DNA of 57,026 nucleotides from Nitrospinota bacterium (GTDB lineage Bacteria > UBA8248): NCBI GenBank assembly GCA_046581755.1, contig JAYGFR010000364.1:1-57026 (forward strand), read 5' to 3'. This document shows, piece by piece, positions 1 through 12,400 of the stretch. Every line of letters starts with the position of its first letter. Position 1 is the first letter of the stretch. The translations under genes were made by a program, and so were the position numbers. The notes below the pieces were generated by a model. It did no database searches, had not been told where the DNA came from, and saw only the letters and a list, made by a program, of their open reading frames with translations.

Positions 1-57
1 GACGTTGATCGGCTCGTAGGTCTGGTTGAGCACAAGCACGCGCACGGATTGGATCAT
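1..57 (-). CDS. HNH endonuclease family protein, 5' end only (runs off the window)
   Basis: Manual translation MIQSVRVLVLNQTYEPINV matches the VLVLN-x-x-YEP-x-x-V N-terminus of McrA-like HNH proteins. RBS GAGGGAGGT sits just upstream of ATG 57. Too short for the ORF track. Confidence 0.75.
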   Translation of the reverse strand, partial: MIQSVRVLVLNQTYEPINV

Positions 58-269
58 GCCACCTCCCTCGGCCGGACGGAATCTCGGGCAAAACACGGAT
101 ATTCGGTTGCTGACTGGGAACCCTTTATCGTATTTCAGGGCTTCATTTGTCAACGCAGGCACCGCCCCCCCGCTTCGGAACCTCTGGCGCGCTTGCGGCG
201 CCCCCCGGGCGGCGGTTATTCTTTGGAATTAATGGTGCCTCCGGCCCATGCCGCTGAGAGGGTGCTCTC

Positions 270-2486
270 TTGATATCGCGCAAACCCAAAAGAGGGAGGC
301 TCTTTTTCGCCCTGGCCTTCGCCGCGGCCGCCCTGGGCGGCGGAGCGGGCGCGGGCTTTTCGGTCCTCTACGATTTTCCCGAGCTCGAATACCTGCACAA
401 CTACCGGCCCAGCACCATCACCCGCATCTACGCCCGCGACGGCCGGCTCATCGCCGAACTCTACCAGGAGCGCCGCACCCCCATCCCCCTGAGCCGCATT
501 CCGGCCCGGGTGCGCCAGGCCTTCCTAGCCATCGAGGATGCCCGCTTCTACAAACATCCCGGCGTCAGCACGCGCGACATCGTCCGCGCCTTCGTGCGCA
601 ACCTGCGCGCCCGCCGCCTCGTCCAGGGCGGATCGACCATCACCCAGCAACTCGCCAAGGTCCTCTTCCTCACCTCCGAGCGCACCCTCAAGCGCAAGAT
701 TCGCGAGGCCCTCCTCGCCCTCGAAATCGAGCGCCGCTTCACCAAGGATGAAATCCTCGAGTTCTACCTCAACCAAATCTATCTCGGCTCGGGCGCTTAC
801 GGAGTCGAGGCCGCCGCCCGCGGCTATTTCGGGAAAACCACCGGCCAGCTCACCCTCGTCGAGGCCGCCACGATCGCCGGGCTGCCCAAGGCCCCCTCGC
901 GTTTCAACCCGCGCACCCATCCCCAGCGCGCCCGGACGCGCCTCCTCCTCGTCCTTCGCCGGATGCGCGAGGTCGGCTTCATCACCCCCGGCCAGGAGGC
1001 CGCCGCCGCCGAGGAGCCCCTGCGCCTCGTCCCGCGCGCCGTCAACGTCCCGCCCGAGCTGGGCTATTTCGTCGAGCGCATCCGCCGCCGCCTGGGCCGC
1101 CGCTACGGGGCCGCCCTCTACCGCAGCGGCCTTTCGATCCACACCACCCTGGACATCGACCTCCAGAAGAGCGTCCACAACGCCCTCCTCAAGGGGATCG
1201 AGGAGATCAACCGCCGGCGCGGCTTCCTTCCTCTCGGGCGCAAGCGCCGCCGCCGACCGCGCCTGGGCGACCGCTACCAACTCCGCATTGCCGACCTCAA
1301 ACCCGGAACCGTCCACGGCGCCGTCGGCGGCTACGAGATATCCCTCGACCTGCCGGGGCGCATCGACCAGAGGCTTCTCCGCGAGGGCGACCTCATCCTC
1401 GGCCGGGTCATCCAAATCGACCACGCCGGCAAGACCATGCGCCTCGACTGGCAGGACACCGTCCAGGGCGCCGCCGTCGCCTTCAACCCGCGGACCGGGG
1501 CCCTCCTCGCCCTCACCGGAGGCACCAACTACCGCCGTTTCCAGTACAACCGCGCCACCCAGGCTAAGCGCTCGCCCGGCTCCGCCTTCAAGCCCGTCAT
1601 CATGGCCACCGCACTGTCGATGGGCTACACCCCAGCCCTGATCCTCATGGACTCCCCCTTCGTCCGCCGCATGCCCGGCACCCCCAAGGACTGGAAACCG
1701 CGAAACTACACCAACAAATTCTATGGGCCCGTCACCATGCGCCGCGCCCTCGTCAAATCCCTCAATCTGGCCACCATCAAGCTCCTCGACCAGATCAAGC
1801 CCGCCTCCGTCGTCGTCTTCGCCCGCCGCCTCGGCATCCGCTCCCCGCTCCAGCCCTACCTCTCCCTGGCCCTGGGCGCGTTCGAAATCTCCCCCTTCGA
1901 CTTCACCGCCGCCTACATCCCCTTCGCCGCCGACGGCATCCAGGCCCGGCCCTACGCCACCGTCAAGGTCACCGACCGGGCCCAGCGCGTCCTCGAGATA
2001 AACGTCACCCAGAACCACCGCGCCGTCTCGGCCGAGGTCGCCTTTCAGGTGCGCTCCCTCCTGCGCGGCGTCGTCACCTCCGGCACCGCCCGGCGCGCCC
2101 TCAAACTCCCCGGCTTCGCCGCCGGAAAGACCGGCACCACCAACGAATACCGCGACGCCTGGTTCATCGGCTTCACCGACGACCTCATCCTCGGCGTCTG
2201 GGTCGGCCGCGACGACAACAAACAGATGGGCTACCGCGCCGCCGGGGGCACCGCCGCCCTCCCCATCTGGGTCAACATCATGAAAACCTGGATGGCCCGC
2301 CGCTCCGCGCCCCTGCCCTCCGCCAAACCCTCCGGCGTCGCCCTCGTCCGCATCGACGAGCGCACCGGCCTCCTCCCTTCGCCCGAATGCCCCGGCAAAA
2401 CCCTCACCGAAGCCTTCGCCCGGGGAACCGAGCCCACCGAAAGGTGCCGGAAACGACGGGCCGGAGAAGAGGTGTTCGGGGGCTGA
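270..2486 (+). CDS. mrcA: Penicillin-binding protein 1A (transglycosylase/transpeptidase)
   Basis: N-terminal TM helix; EDARFYKHPG, GGSTITQQL and RKIRE transglycosylase motifs; GSAFKP (SxxK), SLN and KTGT transpeptidase motifs. TTG start. Confidence 0.95.
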   Translation: MISRKPKRGRLFFALAFAAAALGGGAGAGFSVLYDFPELEYLHNYRPSTITRIYARDGRLIAELYQERRTPIPLSRIPARVRQAFLAIEDARFYKHPGVSTRDIVRAFVRNLRARRLVQGGSTITQQLAKVLFLTSERTLKRKIREALLALEIERRFTKDEILEFYLNQIYLGSGAYGVEAAARGYFGKTTGQLTLVEAATIAGLPKAPSRFNPRTHPQRARTRLLLVLRRMREVGFITPGQEAAAAEEPLRLVPRAVNVPPELGYFVERIRRRLGRRYGAALYRSGLSIHTTLDIDLQKSVHNALLKGIEEINRRRGFLPLGRKRRRRPRLGDRYQLRIADLKPGTVHGAVGGYEISLDLPGRIDQRLLREGDLILGRVIQIDHAGKTMRLDWQDTVQGAAVAFNPRTGALLALTGGTNYRRFQYNRATQAKRSPGSAFKPVIMATALSMGYTPALILMDSPFVRRMPGTPKDWKPRNYTNKFYGPVTMRRALVKSLNLATIKLLDQIKPASVVVFARRLGIRSPLQPYLSLALGAFEISPFDFTAAYIPFAADGIQARPYATVKVTDRAQRVLEINVTQNHRAVSAEVAFQVRSLLRGVVTSGTARRALKLPGFAAGKTGTTNEYRDAWFIGFTDDLILGVWVGRDDNKQMGYRAAGGTAALPIWVNIMKTWMARRSAPLPSAKPSGVALVRIDERTGLLPSPECPGKTLTEAFARGTEPTERCRKRRAGEEVFGG

Positions 2487-2664
2487 TCTTCCGATGTCAT
2501 CCAGGACCGTGCGGCGGAACGGAACAAAGATAGGCGTGGGTCTTCGTAGTCACATTGGGTCTTCGCAGCCACAATGATATGAATGGCAAAAATCGCCCCT
2601 GCCAGGGGACCGCGGATGCCCGGAGATGGCGGCGGCCAAAAAGATACCCCGCGCCCCGGACGTT

Positions 2665-2907
2665 CTAGTCCTGCCCCGCCGAGGTATTTTTTTTGCCGCC
2701 GGAGCGGAATTTTTTATTGAGTTCGAGGTATTGTTGGTAATCGATGAGCACCGCCACCGGATGGCCGTTGCGTTCCACGAGAACAGGGACCCGATCGTAT
2801 GCCACCCGATGGAGAAGCTCCCCGAATTGCTTTTTTGTGTCCGTCGCGGAGATAATATCCAAATCTCCGAATTTGGCCCGGGATTTTTTGACCTTCCGTC
2901 TGGCCAT
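2665..2907 (-). CDS. Phd/YefM family antitoxin (type II TA), no adjacent toxin
   Basis: ISATDTKKQFGELLHRV...PVLVERNGHPVAVLIDYQQY is a typical Phd fold signature. ATG 2907 with RBS AAGGAG. 80 aa. Confidence 0.85.
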   Translation of the reverse strand: MARRKVKKSRAKFGDLDIISATDTKKQFGELLHRVAYDRVPVLVERNGHPVAVLIDYQQYLELNKKFRSGGKKNTSAGQD

Positions 2908-3025
2908 CCCGCACTCCTTCCCAACAGGGCGAATCCGGTTAGCTGTATCCTCCCAAACCCTCGCCCACGAGCCCCTTCCGGCGCCTGTGGGTAATCTACC
3001 ATAGCGCATGAAGCAGCGGCCCCTA

Positions 3026-3076
3026 AACCCTCCCTTTCCGCTCATCCCGCTCAAACGGTGATGATCCCCCGCCCTC
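3026..3076 (+). repeat. 51-bp direct repeat, copy 1 (copy 2 at 5228-5278)
   Basis: AACCCTCCCTTTCCGCTCATCCCGCTCAAACGGTGATGATCCCCCGCCCTC; 48/51 identical to copy 2. Overlaps the inverted repeat CCCGCTCAA (3046-3054)/TTGAGCGGG (3086-3094). Confidence 0.95.
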
Positions 3077-3437
3077 ACCCCGAACTTGAGCGGGTGGCTC
3101 GGCCGGCCACAGCCCCACCGGGAATTCCCGGCCGGGAGCGCGAGAATCATCTCCACCGTCCCGGGCGGCTACAGCAGGGAACATCCTTTTGGGCGGCGGG
3201 AGCGGGATAGCCGTGGATGCTATGACGGGGTCGAACTATCATTACCCGGATGCATTGAAATTTCCGATGGAACCGATAGATTCAGCGCCTGAATAGGAAA
3301 AAAAGCGTTAAGAGACGTCGAGATTTGGAAAAAACAAAAAGAGGAAAAACTGCAAAGAGAAATTGAAGCCATTGGGCAATAGGATAAACTGGCCACAGGC
3401 TTGAATTGAAAAAATCCTCCAAGAGGGGGGGGGGATT

Positions 3438-4169
3438 ATGGCAAAGCGGTTTCTGTTAATCCTTCTGCTCGTGCTCGCCGGGTGCGGCGGCGGGAGCGGC
3501 GTCCCGGGGTATACGTCTCAAGAGGTCGCGCAGCTTCCTTCATGGCGGAAACTCATCACCCGGATCGGCGAGTACCGGCCCCATGTGTGCCCGGACTGCG
3601 GGGCGAACGACTGGAAGCTCGGCATATTCAAGACCGAAAAGGTGAACGCCTATAACGCGGGGGACGGGGTGTTCTACGTTACCGAGGGCCTGACCCGGCT
3701 CCGCTTCGGACTCCAGGACGCGGCCCTGGCGCATGAGGTGGCCCACGAGGTGGCGGGGCACGTCAAGGCGCGCCAGGCGGCTTCGCTGGCGACGACGGCG
3801 GCATTCGTGGTGCTGGGGGCGATCATTCCCGGCGCCGGGCTCCTAAACCATGCCGTGAACCCGGTAATCACGAGGGCCTTCAGCCGGGAACAGGAGCTCG
3901 AGGCGGACTCGATTGCGATCACGCTGATGCGGCGGGTGCGCGGTAACGATTCGGGAGCGGAGGATCTGGCGGCGCTGATCCGGCTATTCGAGGCGTCGGG
4001 ATCGAAGGGCGGGGAACTGCTCGACACCCACCCGCACCCCCAGGAGCGGCTGAAAATGATCGCCACGATCCTCTCCGGCGCGGCCCAGCCGCTTCCGATT
4101 CCGGCGGACTATACTTCTCCGGCACTGGACGCCGAGCCGGAGAAGGAGGGAGAGACGGTGGCTCAGTGA
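3438..4169 (+). CDS. M48 family zinc metallopeptidase lipoprotein (LoiP/BepA-like)
   Basis: Lipobox LAGC after a hydrophobic signal; VNAY, AHEVAH (HExxH), FSREQELEAD and THP motifs. Confidence 0.9.
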   Translation: MAKRFLLILLLVLAGCGGGSGVPGYTSQEVAQLPSWRKLITRIGEYRPHVCPDCGANDWKLGIFKTEKVNAYNAGDGVFYVTEGLTRLRFGLQDAALAHEVAHEVAGHVKARQAASLATTAAFVVLGAIIPGAGLLNHAVNPVITRAFSREQELEADSIAITLMRRVRGNDSGAEDLAALIRLFEASGSKGGELLDTHPHPQERLKMIATILSGAAQPLPIPADYTSPALDAEPEKEGETVAQ

Positions 4170-4589
4170 AAACGACCCGTATGATGCAGGCGGAGGCCCG
4201 GGCCCTGGAGACAGCGGGTTATCATGGGATGGCCGGGGGGGGCTATCCCCATATGTACCAGCCTTTTAGTAATCGTGAAGCTCCCCCAGCTTCTTTTCAG
4301 ATCGCGTTTGTTCCAGAAAAGAGTTTGATCACCAAGGCGGAGCCGAAGCAGGGAAAGTAGATAATTCTCACCCTCACCTCACACCCGCACCGACCAATAC
4401 CGCCCCCCCTCGAGCGCGTTTCCAGACCCTCTCGGCGGTGAATTAGTAATTCGCCATGCACAAGTGGATGTATTGAGGGGGAGGTCCCTTGCGCCATCTC
4501 AGGAATCTGACCGTGGCGGAGTGCACATCAAAGGAGCCGCCTCCTCCATTTTCCATTCGTTTTTACCGATTCCCCGGCAGTGAAGCGAA

Positions 4590-5033
4590 TTATTTTTTCT
4601 GCCGCCAGGTGTCCGCGCATTCTGCCGAGAGGACACCCGTAACGAGTTCGACCGATTTTCCGGTCAATTTCATGAGCGTTTCCACGGAATACTCGCCGTA
4701 ATATCTCTGAAGGTCCGCCAGCCGCGCGCCCAGGACTAGCGTTTCGATCCCCGAGATCAAAATTGCCCAACAACACATCGGGCACGGTTCCACGGTGGTG
4801 TAGAGGACACCTCCCGAAAGCTCTGATTTTTTTAACTCTGCGCAGGCCTCCCGGATGGCGACGACTTCGGCATGGGCGGTGACATCATGCTGGGAGGTAA
4901 CCAAATTCCTCCCGCGTCCAACGATCTCACCGTCCAGAATGACGATTGATCCGACCGGAATATTTCCCTCCTTGAGGCCAATTCGTGCCTCCTCCAGCGC
5001 AGCCTCCATGTAACCGATATGGCCAGTCGTCAT
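4590..5033 (-). CDS. Zinc-dependent nucleoside/nucleobase deaminase (TadA/guanine-deaminase-like)
   Basis: PVGS, HAE and EPCPMC motifs. ATG 5033 with RBS GGAGGT. 147 aa. Confidence 0.9.
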   Translation of the reverse strand: MTTGHIGYMEAALEEARIGLKEGNIPVGSIVILDGEIVGRGRNLVTSQHDVTAHAEVVAIREACAELKKSELSGGVLYTTVEPCPMCCWAILISGIETLVLGARLADLQRYYGEYSVETLMKLTGKSVELVTGVLSAECADTWRQKK

Positions 5034-5115
5034 GAATTCACCTCCCCGCTCAAAAAGACATCGGAAGCACTTTCCCTTTCCACGGATTTCCGTCTTGAGT
5101 GGAATGAACTCATGG

Positions 5116-5144
5116 ACTACACCCCGAACAAATTGCCATGTCAA
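5116..5144 (-). promoter_or_regulatory. Putative sigma70 promoter of the deaminase gene
   Basis: TTGACA-N17-TGTAGT on the minus strand, ~80 nt upstream of the start. Confidence 0.5.
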
Positions 5145-5227
5145 GACTTCCGGATCCTTTTCCACAGCCGTAACTGACCGGGGCGGGGGCGGCTCGGCCG
5201 GTGGAGCGGTGCGCCTTAACTCCCTAC

Positions 5228-5278
5228 AACCCTCCCTTTCCGTTCATCCCGCTCAAACGATGATGATGCCCCGCCCTC
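5228..5278 (+). repeat. 51-bp direct repeat, copy 2
   Basis: AACCCTCCCTTTCCGTTCATCCCGCTCAAACGATGATGATGCCCCGCCCTC; 3 mismatches to 3026-3076. Confidence 0.95.
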
Positions 5279-5306
5279 TCCCTGGCACCCATCCGGGGGG
5301 AGAGGG
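5274..5306. repeat. REP-like hairpin CCCTCTCCC...GGGAGAGGG containing copy 1 of a 19-bp direct repeat (5288-5306)
   Basis: Perfect 9-bp inverted repeat 5274-5282/5298-5306. CCCATCCGGGGGGAGAGGG recurs exactly at 8052-8070. Confidence 0.85.
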
Positions 5307-5640
5307 GGGGCGAAGGCCCGGACCCGGGAAGAGAAGGGATCGTTGCGCCCCGACGGAGAAACAGACTATGCCCCGTGAATGAATCGAAGGGTCGTTCCGA
5401 GAGGAACGAAGGCCTTTGCTGGTTATGGGCCTCGCACCCGAAACACTCCCCGGGAAGGAAAATGAGACTGGATTTTCCTGGATTAAGAGTGTCGCCGCAT
5501 AATTCTGAATTTTTATCGTTAATTTTTATTGCGATAGATCTTTTGGCAATATACTTAATAAATATTACTCTTCAATTTATTCCATTCAAAAGTTACCCGG
5601 AGAGGCCCGCTTAGATTACCAACTGGCGGGGATGAATCGC

Positions 5641-6470
5641 ATGTCTGTCACCCTAGAGATTCGAGATGGTGATCCTCCCTATTGCTGGAACAGCCCGGAT
5701 ATCTGGGTCGTCCCAGGCAATGATCCGAATGGACCTCAGGGCCAGCCCATCGCGGGTGAGCCGGCCTTTCTTTGGGGGAGAGTCCATAACACGGGAGACC
5801 ATTCCGCCTCGGGCGCACGTGTAGACTTTTACTGGTCCAACCCGGCAACCGGGGTGTTGCGCAGCAACTCGACCCGAATCGGGTCGGCGTTTGTGGATCT
5901 CAATCCGGGAGAGACCAAGGAAGTCCTCTGCATCATTCCCTGGATTCCGGAAATCGTTAACGACGGGCATGAATGCGTGATCGCGGAAGTCATTCATCCA
6001 GGAGACCCCCTCCCTTCTCCTTGGCCGGACGAGTTTGACCCGCCCACCTACCACCAGATCGTGCAGAAAAACCTGACCGTACTTGTGATGAAAAAAATGA
6101 GAATGATGCCCCTTCAGGTAGCCGCCCCCATCAGAGTGGAACGGGTACTGCATGTCGCGACAGAGTTCGGTGGCACCCTGGATAAGCAGACACTGAAGCA
6201 GGTGGGGCTTGAGAACTACAGACCGGCCAAGTGCGATTCCCTGAAGGTCGGGCTTACGCTCGAACCCGGATGTGAAGAGCCGGGCAAGGAGGCCTTGGAC
6301 GAGGAGGTGAAACTATCGCTCAAACCCGGAACTGCGAGAGCCGTGTATCTGAACGTCTGGCCACCGGAACTGAAGCCCAGGACCTATGTTTTGCTTCACG
6401 TCATCTCCCGCGATAAGAAAAAGTCGTGGGCGGCGTCACCTACATTCTGATCAGTGCGGTGGAGGATTAG
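5641..6470 (+). CDS. Uncharacterised protein with CARDB/Ig-like 'SPDIWV' domain; probable 1-nt frameshift near 6420
   Basis: WNSPDIWV...RVHNTG...VDFYWS...L-x-PGE...W-x-P...H-x-C...QKN pattern. As sequenced it stops at 6450. Adding one A to the A5 run 6418-6422 gives ...KKKVVGGVTYILISAVED* (TAG 6468-6470), abutting the next RBS/ATG. Start at 5632 or 5641. Confidence 0.75.
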
Positions 6471-6474
6471 GACG

Positions 6475-7982
6475 ATGGCTGTTACACCGATGGATATTCG
6501 AAGACGCCCGTTTTCGGTAGAACCTTTTACCAACGTCATGTTGCCCGATGGTATTTTCGACACGGCGCTCAAAAAGCAGCAGATTACATGTTTTTACACG
6601 AACACCTCGGGCGCGATCCTTCATAGAGTGACGATCTATCTTGAAGGAGTTGGAGACCCGGGTATTTTGCCCGAAGCGCACAGTTATTTCTTCCAGGAAA
6701 TCAAATCGGGCGCGTCCATCCGAGTGTCGTGGCTTGCCGATTTCGAGAATGGAACGCCGGGGAAAAAGCTCGTGAGCTTTATCGCCCTGGCACAGGGAAT
6801 GTCCCTCGTCAGAACGCCTAAGCATATCTTCGTATCGAAGACCACACGCGATGAGGCGACCGGTGAATATAGCTGCACCGTCGAGGAGGGCCCCCTAAAG
6901 ATCTCTACTATGGAAGTCATAGGGCCCAGAGACCAATGGTTGCCTTGCAGTGAACGATACAAGGATTGCCGGCCAACAAAAGGTCCGTGGGTACCGGTCA
7001 AGATGTCGATGGTTTTCTATCCCAATCCGGCCTACGCCAGCGTTCACGGCGATCTGCTGTTCAGCGATCCCTGGTGGAAGATTCTCGCATGGATTGTAGC
7101 GGCCATCGCTGCCATTGTGGCCATCGTTGCGGCGGCCCTTGGCGAAGGGAGGGCAGGCACCGCCGTGAGCGGGACGTTCGACGAGACGACCGGCGATATA
7201 AATTGCTGTACGCCGGACCCAGGCAGCATACCGGGCGATAACGGATTGACGGTTGCGGGAGTCGCATCCGCGATTGCAACCGGGACCGTGGCTGTCGGCC
7301 TTTCCGACGATTCCGATCCCTGGTGGCGCGGTCAGGAGGCAACCCGCCCGCCACCGGCGAATTGACAGTCGCCGAAGCGCTCAATGTTACGTTTGACTAT
7401 CCCGGCGGCGCTCCCAATGCCAACGAGCCTTACCCGGTTTCCGTCAAGTTGGACTATCAGCGCATTACGACCGGGAACGCGTACCCACATTCCGTTGAAG
7501 AAACGCAAAACAACATCCATGTGAACGGCGGTGTGGAGGTTGAGGTACCCTCGTTGCATCATGCCTTCGTGGAACCCTTGGTGATCAAGTCCCGGTTCAA
7601 GCGTAACAACGGCAAGCTCTTTGTCGGTGAGGACCTATACGCATTTTCACTGCTGCGATCGCCGGACGACATGTATTTCTTGGTTGATCTTGCTGATGAC
7701 GGCATTGAGCACGACGAGAAGCCCAACGACGGGACCTACACAGGCTTCATTCACCTAAAGGAGGTTTACCGTATCCTTTTAAAGCACCAATTGAAGCCCG
7801 AGGGACTTTGGCGTGTGTACGTCTTCGCACAGGACGTGAATGACGCGACACCGGATATGTCCCCGCAAATTGCCGCCAAGCAGATAGGCGGTTTTATGGT
7901 CGCAAGTGGTCTAAAGATCACCTTTGACTCGACTCTGCCTTGCCCACTGCAGGCTCAAGCGGTGGTCACGGTGGTTGTGTAG
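6475..7982 (+). CDS. Uncharacterised ~500-aa protein with central hydrophobic segments and a C-terminal choice-of-anchor-X-like motif; split by a probable frameshift near 7344
   Basis: ATG 6475 with RBS GGAGG. ORFs 6454-7365 and 7323-7982 overlap, and the second has no credible start. Adding one C at 7343-7345 joins them (EATPPATGELTV). LADDGIEHDEKPNDGTYTG motif. Confidence 0.7.
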
Positions 7983-8051
7983 CGCCCGTACACTCACCCC
8001 ATCCCTTGCCCCGCTCGAACCCTATTCGGCGGGTGGATATGAACCCCACCT

Positions 8052-8070
8052 CCCATCCGGGGGGAGAGGG
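8052..8070 (+). repeat. 19-bp direct repeat, copy 2
   Basis: CCCATCCGGGGGGAGAGGG, identical to 5288-5306. Confidence 0.9.
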
Positions 8071-8270
8071 TTCCGTGAAGCTGCCTGAATGTCCGGGATT
8101 TTGCGCGGGTTTTCGGGGGGTTCGGGCGTGTCTTGTGGGGCTGTGACCCACACCGAATTTCTGGGGATTTGCACGCATCTTGGGGGATTTCCGTGAAATT
8201 GCCCGCAAATCCGGGGGATTGGGCGGGTATTCGGGGGTTTTGGGGAAATGGCCCGCAAGTCCGGCGGGGG
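8071..8270. repeat. Degenerate G/T-rich repeat region
   Basis: TTCCGTGAAGCTGCCTGAATGTCCGGGA... (8071) resembles TTCCGTGAAATTGCCCGCAAATCCGGGG... (8189) and GAAATGGCCCGCAAGTCCGG (8245). GGGATT recurs. Confidence 0.65.
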
Positions 8271-8328
8271 CGTTTCGAAATATTCGCTCTAGGAGGTGCC
8301 CGGACGGCGGTCCCAGGCCGGGCTTGGG

Positions 8329-9315
8329 TCAGGAGGCTGATTCTCCGAAGAGGGCGGCGGTAAAGGCGTTGGCGTCGAAGGGGAGGAGGTCGGCGATGCC
8401 TTCTCCGACGCCGATCCAGCGGACGGGGATGCCGCTCTGGTGGACGGCGCCGATGAGGACGCCACCCTTGGCGCTGCCGTCGAGCTTGGTGATGACGAGA
8501 CCGGTGACGCCGAGGGCGGGGCCGAAGCGGGCGACCTGGGCGAGGGCGTTCTGGCCGGAGGTGGCGTCGAGGACGAGGAGGACTTCGTGGGGCGCGCCGG
8601 GGATTTGGCCGGCGGCGACACGGCGGATCTTGACGAGTTCGTCCATGAGGTTTTGCTGGGTGTGGAGGCGGCCGGCGGTGTCGACAAGGAGAACACCGGC
8701 GCCGCGGGCGCGGGCGGCGGCGATGGCGTCGAAGACGACGGCTCCCGGGTCGGCGCCCTCTTTGTGGCGAACGATCTGACAACCAGCGCGCTCAGCCCAG
8801 ACTTCGGCCTGCTCGCCGGCGGCGGCGCGGAAGGTATCGGCGGCGGCGAAAACGACGATCTGGCCTTCGGCTGCGAGGCGGGCGGCGATTTTTCCGGCGG
8901 TGGTGGTTTTTCCGGCGCCGTTGACTCCGGCGAGAAGTATGACACGGGGCTCTCCGGGCGGAGGGTCGGCGGGTGCGGCCGGAGGGTCGGCGGCAGGACG
9001 CTCGATGAGGTCCAGGAGAATCGACTGGATGCGCTCGGCCGGGGTCTCTCTTTTTCCCTCGCCCCGGCGGAGGCGATCGAGAACGGTTTCGACGGCCCCA
9101 GGCCCGATGTCGGCCATGTAGAGAACTTCTTCGATCTCGTCGATGGTTTCCAGATCGAAGCGGGTTCGCCCGACAAGAGCGGATTCGATACGGGCAACGA
9201 AGGATTCGCGCGTTTTGGCGAGGCCCCTTCGCAGACGCCCGAAAAAGCCTTTTTCCTTCTCGCCGATCAATTCGGAGGGTTTGTCATTTTCGTTTTTTCC
9301 GAATCCAAAACCCAA
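8329..9315 (-). CDS. ftsY: Signal recognition particle receptor FtsY
   Basis: GVNGAGKTTT, DTFRAAA, DTAGR, TKLDGSAKGG and GVGE motifs. Confidence 0.97.
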   Translation of the reverse strand: MGFGFGKNENDKPSELIGEKEKGFFGRLRRGLAKTRESFVARIESALVGRTRFDLETIDEIEEVLYMADIGPGAVETVLDRLRRGEGKRETPAERIQSILLDLIERPAADPPAAPADPPPGEPRVILLAGVNGAGKTTTAGKIAARLAAEGQIVVFAAADTFRAAAGEQAEVWAERAGCQIVRHKEGADPGAVVFDAIAAARARGAGVLLVDTAGRLHTQQNLMDELVKIRRVAAGQIPGAPHEVLLVLDATSGQNALAQVARFGPALGVTGLVITKLDGSAKGGVLIGAVHQSGIPVRWIGVGEGIADLLPFDANAFTAALFGESAS

Positions 9316-9452
9316 TTTGGATCGCCTCCTGGTGGATTCGCCCGATTTTCCGTTTTAATAAAGAACCCCCGCTCCAAGCCGTATGGACCGAGATACGGGG
9401 GTTCGTTCAACCGATTCAGGCCAGGCATATTCACCCGGCGCACCAATGCGGT

Positions 9453-12400
9453 TTATGCCTCCATTTCGGTGGCGACTTCATTCTCCTTGGCGCCATTATC
9501 CTCCGCGTCCGGGCGATTCATCTTCACGGAGACGATGATGGAAACGCCCTTTTCGCGCTGGGTGACGCCGTAAAGCCGAGATGCGTAGGACATGGTCCGT
9601 TTGTTGTGGGTGATGAGGATGAACTGGCTCCGGGACTCCATCTCTCCAATCACATCCCGGAACCTCCCCACATTCGCATCATCGAGGGTGGCGTCCACCT
9701 CATCCAGAAGGCAGAACGGGCTTGGACGGACAGAAAAAACGGAAAAGAGAAGCGCAAGGGCAGTCAGCGCCTTCTCCCCAGACGAAAGGAGCATGATATT
9801 TCCAGGGCGCTTGCCCGGGGGGCGAACCTCAATGTCCACCCCCGTCTCTAACGGGTCATTTGGATCCAGAAGATACATGCGTGCTTCACCGCCCTGGAAT
9901 AAGCGTCCAAATATTTCGGAAAATTTTTGACTCACCTGCTCGAATGCCTCGGTGAAACGTTTTCGCGTCGTTTTGTTTAATTTATCAATGGTCGTATGCA
10001 GGTCCTGAATGGAATTTTCGAGGTCTTCCTGCTGCTCGCTCAAGAAAGAATATTCCTGATTGATTTCATCATATTCATGAGCCGCCAGAGGATTGACTTC
10101 ACCCATTCGGGCCAAGCGTTGTCGGAGCATATCGAGACGATTAACATGCTCCTGATATTCTGGGAGGAATTCCATGTAATCTTGTGCAACCGGAATCAAA
10201 TCGATACCAAACTCATTGCGTGCGGATTCTATTAGAGCCTCCCGCTGCACACGAATGGTGGTCCGCCGCTCTGCCAAATCGGTGAGGAGTGCCTGAATTT
10301 GAGCAGCTTCATCGCGCATATTCGGCAACAACTCGCCTAACTCCTCATCCCGGGCCCGAATCTCCTCCAGGATTCGAGATCGTTCGCCCTGCTCGGTTTC
10401 TATTAACAACTTATCTTTTTTGAGGCGTTCAATTTCTTCGCGGCTCTGGGCAATATTCAGGTGCAAGCTTTCGCGTTTATTGACGGAATCTTCTTCTTCC
10501 TCACGCCTTCGGGCCACACGGGCTTTATTCTGGTGAATTCCATCGATTACCCGCTGAATCTCGGCACTAACTCCGGTGGCTTTTCCTTGGACCACAGTCA
10601 AGAGGACCCGGCGATCAGATGCCTGTTCTTCCATCTGGGCCAGTTTTTCTCCGAAATGTTTTAAATTCTTTTGGGCATCGACGATCCGGGCATCAACCTC
10701 CTGAAGCATACCGGAGGTTCTAGCCCCTTCTTTTTCCGCTTCTTGGTGCTCAAGATCGATGCGGTTAACCTCGATTTTCAATTGGGAATGCTGGTGGGAA
10801 AGTGCTCGAAATCGATTATCAGAAACTGCCAATTTTTCCTGTGAAGCGCGGAGCTTTCCCTCTATCTCGACACGAGTCAACTCCGTTTGGCGAACAGTTT
10901 GTGTCGCCTGGTCCAACGCATCCTGAATGCATTCGAGACTTTCCCGGTAAAACGATTCTCTCTCGCCTAAGTCATCTAGCCGGGTTTCCAATGCCGCTGC
11001 CTCAATCCGCATTTCTTCACAGCGGCGCTTTCTTTCCAATAGCCCCGCACGGGGGTCAGCAGCGGAACCGCCCTCGACACAGCCAGATGGGTAGACAACT
11101 TCACCTGTCAGAGTCACCCACGTAATCCCTTCGGACCCTTTCTGCCATGCCTCAAATGCAACTCCCAAATCGCGGACAATCCCGATATTGGAAAGAAGTG
11201 CTTCCATCAGGGGGCGGTACTCATTCGGGAACTCGACAAGGTCGATCGCCCTTCCTTCAATTCCTCCGGCTGACGGAATGTAATGCGACGAAACTCCTCT
11301 TGAATTCACCGGATGAATGATTCCACGGCCTGCCATCCCAGAAGACACCAGTTTTTTGATCGCAACTGCAGCCGATTCGGGATCGGATACAATTACTCCA
11401 TCGATATTCATGCCAAGCGCCGCTTCGATTGCAATTTCATGGCGCGACTTAACCTTAATTAAATCGGCTAATGCTCCACGAACCTCAACTCCCAGACCTC
11501 GGATTTTTTCGACTCCAATTTTATCCTGCGATGAATCTCCCTCGATATTTTCCAACGCCTGAACCGAAGAACGAATTCCAACGAGAGTTTCCTTCGAATC
11601 CGTGATCAATTCTTCATATTCCTTCAACGACGACTCTATCTTGTCTTTTTCCGCGATAATCTTTTCGGCCTCTTTTCTCGATGAGGCAACCTTGGCGGAC
11701 AAATCAGTGAGATTAGCAGTAAACCATTCTACTTCATTTTGAAGTTCGCCACGGGTGGTCTCTAGTTCAGATAACTCCTGGGCCAATTTGTCGATCGATT
11801 CTCGAATTACATCCCGCCTTGAGATAGCAGAAGCAACTCGCTGATGGGTGTTATTGAGTCTTTCGGCCTCACGAGAACTCAACTCCCGTCTTTCATTTTC
11901 CCTTTTTTCCCATTCAGCCATTTCTGATCGAAGGCCAATTAATTCGTCCGAGATCAACTCGTATTGACCTTTTGCGACCTCCACCTCTTCCGAAAGAGAA
12001 ACTTCAAGGGCCGTTAACTCGCCCCGTTCCTCCTCAAGATCATGCGCTTCTTTTTGCAACGACTGCATCTCTTCCCGTCGGCGCTCATCTTCACCATCGA
12101 GTTCAACGAGACGGCCCGAGAGCATCTCCAAACGATTTTCTAGGCGCTGAAGATACCCCTCCACCTCCACTGCCCTGCGACGGACATCGGCAAGTGCCTC
12201 AGACCGCTCTGCCAAATCGACCCGGCATTTTTCGCGATCAGCTTCCCTGGCCGAAAACGCCCCGGCATGAACCTCTTTTCTTTCATTTACGGCGGAATAT
12301 TCCCGCTCAATTGGTTTCAATTCCCCGTCAAGGCGAAGAAGATCCATTCCCGACATTCGCAATTCGAGCTCTTTAATTTCTTTTTGGTATTCTTTATGGA

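Follow-up and report, generated by a model that had tools for sequence, protein, structure and literature searches.

What fills the space between 2 core genes of a Nitrospinota bacterium, and how did it come to lie there? The question is raised by a 57,026-nt stretch of DNA (the window), which is contig C179 of the 4.22-Mb assembly G000 (400 contigs, 60% G+C). A mrcA-type class A penicillin-binding protein gene (270-2486, + strand; Pfam Transgly, E 3.3e-67, and Transpeptidase, E 5.2e-27) and ftsY, which encodes the signal-recognition-particle receptor (8329-9315, - strand; Pfam SRP54, E 2.6e-67), are convergent and form the left and right core anchors of a 5.8-kb interval with genes in mixed orientation: an antitoxin gene, an M48-family metallopeptidase gene, a deaminase gene, and a two-gene module. 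The G+C content is 49% to 60% across most of the interval versus 66% to 73% in the anchors. An earlier, sequence-only reading rightly described unrelated genes in mixed orientation between convergent mrcA and ftsY, and explained them as a cassette array, with modules added one after another by recombination at a structured repeat. Our analysis indicates that the gap is probably a gene-gain hotspot of this Nitrospinota-like family, filled with foreign genes plus the genome's own debris of insertion sequences (ISs), MITEs (miniature inverted-repeat transposable elements), and sequences like repetitive extragenic palindromes (REPs), and not a new cassette system.

Variation of the mrcA-ftsY gap among relatives

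We located both anchor genes in relatives and measured the gap between them. The relatives are fragmented metagenome-assembled genomes (MAGs), one MAG per species, and the same-genus comparison comprises 4 genomes, G001, G002, and G003 among them. The anchors lie less than 100 bp apart in G008, G005, G011, and G015, and approximately 0.4 to 0.7 kb apart in G021, G012, and G016. Within the genus the gap measures approximately 2.3 kb in G002, 4.3 kb in G003, and 7.0 kb in G001, and it reaches approximately 3.3 kb in G022 and 4.1 kb in G024. The cargo was scanned with Pfam on 82 open reading frames (ORFs) of at least 70 amino acids in 8 intervals. G001 carries a response regulator, a 1152-amino-acid cyclase/AAA/TPR (cyclase-STAND) protein, and a YbaK-type gene; G002, an OLD-like ATPase-TOPRIM nuclease; G003, a YbaK gene, a NucS-C-like nuclease, and a HEPN plus nucleotidyltransferase (HEPN/MNT) pair; G022, a dehydrogenase (SDR), a luciferase-like oxygenase, and an isochorismatase; and G024, a pyruvate carboxylase. 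The cargo of these 5 genomes, with gaps of 2.3 to 7 kb, is unrelated between genomes, and the same core flanks thus enclose differing accessory content across relatives, as in a hotspot of horizontal gene transfer (HGT). This comparison had been proposed as a check along with the cassette array, and both gap size and cargo proved to vary. No integrase, transposase, or recombinase domain was found by Pfam among the 82 ORFs, and profiles of 6 repeat families of G000 gave 0 matches in 10 intervals of relatives. The OLD-like AAA/TOPRIM nuclease of G002 (locus L012, contig C307, 1871-3549) is apparently split over 2 ORFs and is a candidate anti-phage defence gene.

The two-gene module of the window (5632-7982) has relatives far outside this locus. 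Gene 1 (5632-6450, + strand) has no match in Pfam or NCBIfam; its top cluster in a protein language-model atlas is 'putative CARDB domain-containing protein' (0.98), which may be its own cluster, and by language-model similarity only the product looks CARDB-like. Gene 2 (6454-7982, + strand) has homologs of 497 to 515 amino acids (approximately 502) with up to 84% identity. The 2 genes adjoin in 17 of 17 retrieved loci, which belong to named MAGs and isolates of several phyla, and mrcA, ftsY, the M48 and deaminase genes, and the window repeats are absent from all 17 of these other loci. At the closest one (L030), nucleotide homology spans only positions 5654-7960 of the window, that is, it ends at the coding ends. 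By these comparisons the module appears to be widely transferred across phyla independently of the window repeats. With no repeat match in the cargo of relatives and none at any of the 17 modules, the proposal of an array built by recombination at one repeat is not supported. Gene 2 is a single frame in L030 and is divided between 2 frames in the window (ORFs 6454-7365 and 7323-7982) by a 1-nt frame change near 7340-7350. Because contigs of the sequencing runs X5, X12, and X2 cover this site without gaps and agree with the window, the split is real in the population, and gene 2 is here probably a pseudogene; no slippery heptamer was seen at the frame change.

Repeat-bracketed insertion does occur at the hotspot, though not with the element of the window, because in G022 the last 86 nt of ftsY are duplicated in direct orientation (1178-1263 and 4044-4129 of locus L014, contig C249; 93% identity) and bracket a 2.9-kb insert of 3 genes. 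The duplication looks like the footprint of an integration into the ftsY 3' end; no integrase is present. Colonisation of the ftsY side by a species' own dispersed repeats was also considered and was rejected because the hairpin-rich repeats beside ftsY in G001 (L011, 7794-8235) are local, with no other match in G001, G002, or G003.

Insertion-sequence ends and dispersed repeats in the gap

The left part of the interval contains 2 decayed ends of an IS1380-family element. The family came to light through a dispersed repeat at 2560-2653 (14 matches), the flanks of which run into an ORF: contig C75 holds a full IS of 1621 bp with inverted termini and a 437-amino-acid transposase (NCBIfam IS1380, 371 bits with a cut-off of 180; DDE_Tnp_1_4, E 9.8e-124). 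Profiles built from the left and right ends of the C75 element detected 16 left ends and 49 right ends in the assembly. In the window they mark a left end at 2509-2658 (+ strand, E 4e-26), which consists of inverted repeat, leader, and approximately 14 transposase codons and contains a 19-nt tandem duplication at 2537-2574, and a right end at 5321-5507 (+ strand, E 2.5e-23) with its terminal inverted repeat at approximately 5495-5512. The 2 ends lie on the same strand, span 2998 bp, and bracket the antitoxin gene, a repeat element that we call L, the M48 gene, 2 inner repeats, the deaminase gene, and a second repeat element, M. The other same-strand end pairs are those of C75 (1621 bp, intact), C150 (1406 bp), C145 (377 bp, MITE-like), and C247 (153 bp), and the breakpoints of the window ends fall within approximately 10 to 17 nt of those of the C145 derivative. 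The window ends show 73% to 80% identity to intact copies (75% to C75 for the left end), and the left inverted repeat has lost most of its outer 9 nt. As in MITEs and mobile insertion cassettes (MICs) derived from IS1380, the two termini correspond to a resident IS and are correctly oriented relative to each other, with transposase absent inside and a cognate one present elsewhere; judged by its ends, the left approximately 3 kb lies between the termini of one transposase-less IS1380 derivative. The sequence-only statement that no integrase is in view holds insofar as tyrosine recombinases (PF00589) are absent from C179, with 12 in the whole assembly, and misses the 2 IS1380-family ends inside the interval.

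Dispersed repeats are present in all spacers of the 5.8-kb gap, and at least 7 families lie at the boundaries. A repeat at 5326-5380 has 24 matches. Between the M48 and deaminase genes we found an IS481/IS3-type (rve) transposase fragment (4261-4330, - strand), with 11 matches in G000 and copies in other genera, and a 114-nt member of a dispersed repeat (4350-4463, + strand), with 82 nhmmer matches on 40 contigs. A full ORF of the former family on C274 matches rve_3 (E 5.2e-12), and its best NCBIfam match is IS481 at 77 bits, below the cut-off. The boundaries had been read as repeats of one family standing at each module, with a weaker look-alike at 4426-4440. Instead, the look-alike lies inside the unrelated 4350-4463 family, the M48/deaminase boundary holds other repeats including the IS481-like fragment, and a search with the 74-nt family of the right boundary fails to detect the copies at 3026 and 5228. 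On many contigs G000 has additional short repeat families in common with the same-genus genomes, with dozens of copies that are often at contig ends (for example L027 7252-7482, L026 4567-4673 and 7792-8009, and L028 1875-1943); the genus as a whole seems to carry unusually many IS and MITE-like repeats.

The 74-nt family consists of a palindromic dispersed element, element A. Its window copy (7997-8069, + strand; nhmmer E 1.2e-16) sits 15 nt past the stop codon of gene 2 and has a degraded second hairpin. An iterated nhmmer search, run to convergence, gave 17 matches on 14 contigs, several at contig ends, a count that may be low since repeat copies may be under-assembled in a 400-contig MAG. 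The consensus, from 6 folded copies, is an outer stem around 2 hairpins. Comparison of 13 near-full copies shows co-variation of the 5' box CCCTCTCCC and the 3' box GGGAGAGGG, with matching changes in both boxes of a second subfamily; pairing is better kept on the + strand of the element (29 G-U pairs, 22 non-pairs) than on the other strand (9 and 42, respectively). With up to 3 mismatches allowed, a core pattern has 13 matches in G000 (reversed control, 0) and none in the 4 same-genus genomes; of the 41 family genomes searched, G006 has 5 matches (4 of which differ in the loop), G016 has 1, and the other 34 have none. Short CCCTCTCCC-N(3-20)-GGGAGAGGG hairpins number 13 in G000.

Element A is often the head of a composite in which 1 to 5 units of approximately 57 nt (47 matches on 16 contigs) are followed by a box containing a 17-mer. 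In the window, degenerate units of 50 to 68 nt and the conserved box (8271-8287, extending to approximately 8297) occupy 8071-8297 (+ strand; 83% identity to C53:7791-8004), and the composite 7997-8297 reaches to within 31 nt of the ftsY stop codon. The order is the same on C61, C158, C45, C118, and in the window, and the head is inverted on C208. The 17-mer has 33 copies with up to 2 mismatches (24 exact; reversed control, 0), is usually followed by CCCTAGGGGGG, and marks the gene-proximal end of the 57-nt arrays, mostly no more than 160 nt away from the start or end of an ORF. A promoter element was considered and rejected because the box obeys no orientation rule: judged by raw ORFs of 150 amino acids or more, 14 of the 33 copies precede a same-strand ORF start and 16 point toward the 3' end of an ORF on the opposite strand.

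Gene gain at element A was examined at 6 other loci against the 4 same-genus genomes (MAGs of 130 to 540 contigs), with no matched control set. At C208 the flanks are syntenic in 4 of 4 genomes, and the spacer measures 163 to 202 nt there versus approximately 790 to 835 nt here with no gene gained; an element A copy in a fully syntenic spacer argues against a cassette array. At C303 the flanking blocks lie 48 to 273 nt apart in 4 of 4 relatives versus 1.5 to 1.7 kb here, and element A stands at one edge of the insertion, which includes an A+T-rich stretch. At C118, C256, and C151 the flanks are divided between different contigs in the relatives or lie beside unmatched DNA, and the C302 locus has only 3 short matching stretches in 10.9 kb.

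The locus-specific repeat pair and competing explanations

The M48 and deaminase genes are bracketed by a direct repeat of 55 nt with 93% identity (3026-3080 and 5228-5282; with one gap, 3021-3081 and 5222-5283), slightly longer than the 51 bp reported by the sequence-only reading. Element L (3021-3106, + strand) contains the left copy, a 9-bp hairpin (3046-3054 with 3086-3094), and a GGCTCGGCCGG box (3096-3106). Element M with its upstream flank (5164-5306, + strand) contains the right copy at 5222-5283, and its stretch 5164-5201 resembles the right flank of L. A CCCTCTCCC/GGGAGAGGG hairpin at 5267-5306 ends element M and includes an exact 19-mer (5288-5306) in common with 8052-8070; as had been reported, these are the 2 copies of the 19-mer, and there is no further one in the assembly. 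The 11-mer GGCTCGGCCGG was likewise found where it had been placed, at 3096 and 5191, inside a match of 14 of 15 nt (3092-3106 versus 5187-5201), and it is rare, with 6 forward and 7 reverse copies genome-wide. Both outer hairpins exist as described, and their fold scores are modest: the DNA-fold z-scores of 3 elements are -1.96, -2.70, and -2.02 on the + strand, within a range of -1.5 to -2.7 against shuffles. Among 51 genomes of the phylum, the L/M pattern has 2 copies, both here, and otherwise one match with 3 mismatches in G021; in JGI data the core pattern is matched by 2 contigs only, both of the same locus at 99% identity. Three of 19 elements, M included, lie 15 to 131 nt upstream of a same-strand piece of the IS right end.

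The sequence occurs in 20 runs from 12 studies, with the labels marine, seawater, or hydrothermal vent. Junctions were checked in Logan contigs of 4 runs from 4 studies, in which rare variants are not visible. Contigs span element L (2709-4612 and 2585-3429), element M (4842-6888 and 5123-5437), and the right element (6976-8134, 7431-8166, and 7178-8134); run X2 has no contig cover of 5415-7101, which is no evidence of absence there. A weak joint from 2904 to 3043 in run X13 was discounted because one side is only 22 nt long. Two JGI contigs cover 2557-4260 and 4393-5752 with 99% identity. The repeats could in principle have joined a chimeric MAG contig, given an assembly of 400 contigs with many repeat copies at contig ends; with independent contigs from 4 studies spanning the junctions and the JGI contigs in agreement, we regard such an artefact as extremely improbable.

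Two other explanations give the repeats or the IS ends a larger part. In one, the region from 2.5 to 5.5 kb is a MIC in which the antitoxin, M48, and deaminase genes between the IS1380 ends transposed as a unit with transposase supplied in trans. The correct relative orientation of the ends, the approximately 14 transposase codons left, the intact transposase gene on C75 with many partial copies elsewhere, and the existence of non-autonomous derivatives (377 bp on C145, 153 bp on C247) are in its favour, and according to the ISsaga paper (PMC3129680) a cognate transposase is able to activate MITEs and MICs. The window resembles what is described there in that ends of a resident IS without transposase bracket genes unrelated to transposition; it differs in that there is one copy only, the ends are decayed, and a search for a target-site duplication found none, and it may be an interrupted MITE. 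This end pair is the only one in the assembly that bears cargo, no second copy exists among the JGI contigs, and no empty site of the IS-bounded unit appears in the contigs of the 4 runs. A MITE interrupted by later insertions, such as the IS481-like fragment and the other repeat inside, explains the IS-bounded structure equally well, and we consider transposition as a unit possible but unlikely. In the other explanation, which is that of the sequence-only reading, L, M, and 7997-8069 are crossover sites at which circles were captured successively, M is a hybrid junction, and the recombinase is encoded elsewhere. L and M do enclose a two-gene unit as direct repeats with 93% identity, in M a left part of the L type is joined to the 3' box of element A, and the flanks of L and M are permuted (O-Y ... 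Y'-O'). In addition, 2.9 kb of cargo lie between the copies of the 86-nt repeat at this hotspot in G022, and element A lies at the edge of the 1.5-kb insertion on C303. That edge is, however, the only one of the insertion with an element A, the G022 repeat is gene sequence and not an L, M, or A element, the M48/deaminase boundary is without element, and so are the cargo of relatives and the widespread two-gene module. A recombinase is missing nearby: a search for Y1 transposases (RAYT/IS200-like; PF01797), which the sequence-only reading had suggested, gave 0 matches in G000 (96.5% complete; control, matches in 6 of 14 reference genomes), and the contig holds no tyrosine recombinase. Excision or empty-site joints, which had also been suggested as a check, were not seen in the contigs of the 4 studies. 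Successive circle capture is therefore, in our estimate, quite unlikely.

A bolder form of the same idea is that CCCTCTCCC/GGGAGAGGG palindromes are the actual crossover points by which an integrase-independent or unrecognised system captures circular segments into Nitrospinota hotspots, with L, the M48 and deaminase genes, and M as a preserved example. If this were true, L and M would be 2 hybrid sites, with flanks permuted as after Campbell-type integration; we hold it to be very doubtful. Several observations nevertheless weigh against the hotspot reading. The 55-nt pair is locus-specific and directly oriented around the M48 and deaminase genes, unlike random colonisation by a dispersed repeat. 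The right flank of L (3076-3106) resembles the left flank of M (5164-5201), including the 11-mer with its 13 genome copies, a permuted layout of the kind that integration of a circle at the repeat would leave; a mosaic of degenerate element pieces, such as stand in tandem on C302, fits it too. At 5 of the 6 other loci, albeit with no matched control, element A lies beside lineage-specific DNA or a synteny break. No consistent target-site duplication was found at C75, C145, C150, or the window. Module-skipping joints and empty sites are absent from the contigs of the 4 studies, but this absence is weak evidence for the hotspot reading, since rare variants are not visible in Logan contigs.

On balance, a gene-gain hotspot littered with the genome's own repeats remains the probable explanation. 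Its cargo would have arrived in several independent events, by IS or MITE insertion and by gene capture or nesting between IS ends, with recombination through the flanking core genes as a possible further route. The CCCTCTCCC/GGGAGAGGG palindromes would be REP- or MITE-like sequences that settle in dispensable spacers and not sites at which modules are joined. Two parts of the sequence-only proposal survive, namely an insertion hotspot (variable cargo) and repeats of transposon origin with their enzyme encoded elsewhere (IS1380 ends with an intact copy on C75); joining at a structured repeat does not. The boundary repeats proved largely to be ordinary intergenic repeats, the locus-specific 55-nt pair being the exception.

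Gene content, known systems, and significance

The leftmost gene of the interval encodes a Phd/YefM-like antitoxin of 80 amino acids (2665-2907, - strand; PF02604, 44.5 bits). It has no toxin ORF as partner, the downstream DNA being the remnant of the IS left end and then mrcA, and the pairing of antitoxin and downstream toxin gene that defines a type II toxin-antitoxin module is thus lacking. The antitoxin unit (2656-3029), which comprises the gene and the region upstream of it, has 5 copies counting the window; its paralogs, with approximately 77% to 82% identity, are on 4 other contigs (C89:5260-5628, C98:994-1369, C134:3184-3346, and C88:35412-35523). Three of the paralogs are followed by a 58-codon ORF whose product looks, by eye, like the C-terminal portion of a serine protease of the trypsin type (GNSGGP motif). 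The M48-family metallopeptidase gene (3438-4169, + strand; Peptidase_M48, E 5e-15) encodes an N-terminal stretch that looks like a putative lipoprotein signal, and a G10 tract lies within its ribosome-binding region. No ortholog was found in 4 of 4 same-genus genomes (no match at E <= 1e-15), and homologs with 45% to 52% identity occur at other loci in 4 other relatives of other genera. The third gene encodes an accessory deaminase of the cytidine/deoxycytidylate type (4590-5036, - strand; dCMP_cyt_deam_1, E 8.6e-24). That it might be a relocated essential TadA was rejected, since its TadA-model score of 87.8 bits does not reach the cut-off of 150; a paralog on C274 scores 184 bits and is likely, by this match, the housekeeping TadA enzyme. 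The accessory deaminase has no ortholog in the 4 same-genus genomes, where the best match has 44% identity; its homologs in other genera, at other loci, have 48% to 64% identity. An ancestral divergent pair of M48 and deaminase genes was likewise rejected: the homologs are on separate contigs in G005 and G009, and the remaining relatives with a match carry one of the 2 genes and not both. A scan of 2300-8500 with Rfam gave only a sub-threshold chance match (Antizyme_FSE, 21 bits versus a gathering score of 40), and there is no tRNA or tmRNA gene in 1-12000.

Some further observations concern these genes. Homologs of the accessory deaminase reach 6 to 11 copies per genome, partly in tandem arrays, in G030, G032, G033, and G031, which belong to the same class. 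At position 4583, runs X2 and X5 have loose contig ends and X13 has a divergent contig; the contigs match the deaminase gene from 4583 on (approximately 93% identity in X13) and continue on the other side into unrelated sequence, and in a close relative this deaminase may have different surroundings. The length of 3 homopolymers, including the M48 G10 tract and a G9 tract, differs between metagenome contigs (3424-3433, +GGGG; 4226-4234, +G or +GG; approximately 4402, +CCC), which could be phase variation or homopolymer assembly error.

The gap resembles several known systems in part. It is like the HGT hotspots of Oliveira, Touchon, Cury & Rocha 2017 (PMC5635113) in that the same core pair flanks differing accessory genes, with cargo that includes genes of defence or toxin-antitoxin type, and in having no integrase or self-mobile element, as in the half of those hotspots reported to lack mobile genetic elements; by the same account flanking core genes recombine more often. 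Those hotspots are, however, defined within species pangenomes, and the present one is seen between species and genera, with one MAG per species. Element A shares with the REPs and bacterial interspersed mosaic elements of Proteobacteria that have RAYT transposases (Nunvar et al. 2010, PMC2817692; Di Nocera et al. 2013, PMC3733652) the form of a G+C-rich extragenic palindrome, and in a loose sense it belongs with them, being dispersed, hairpin-forming, species-restricted, and found in mosaic clusters with other motifs. Unlike REPs and REPINs, it has 17 copies and not more than 100, and a length of 74 nt with nested hairpins instead of 20 to 40 nt; unlike REPs with a RAYT, it shows no GTAG/CGTC tag, and the assembly has no Y1/RAYT gene. 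Our literature search found no paper on repetitive extragenic palindromic sequences in Nitrospina. An integron array would also place promoter-poor modules side by side with structured repeats at some junctions; here there is no integron integrase on the contig, the genes face both ways, and the repeat neither follows each module nor travels with one (the attC structure itself was not scanned). Pneumococcal BOX elements are modular boxA-boxB(n)-boxC repeats, and the composite 7997-8297 resembles them in its head element, variable middle units, and conserved tail box; no sequence relation is claimed, and the head is inverted on C208.

These findings leave current views of gene transfer unchanged, and the 55-nt L/M pair is the only part that could alter them. 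They also caution that boundary repeats in common need not mean a cassette system. For the assembly itself, the unusually many short dispersed repeat families account for the fragmentation of G000. What the locus offers is a checkable map of gene gain in a poorly studied marine lineage, Nitrospinota-like by the names of its FtsY relatives: a conserved landing site between mrcA and ftsY, where the cargo landed in sister species includes genes of defence and toxin-antitoxin type, and an IS1380-family element that leaves transposase-less ends around passenger genes.

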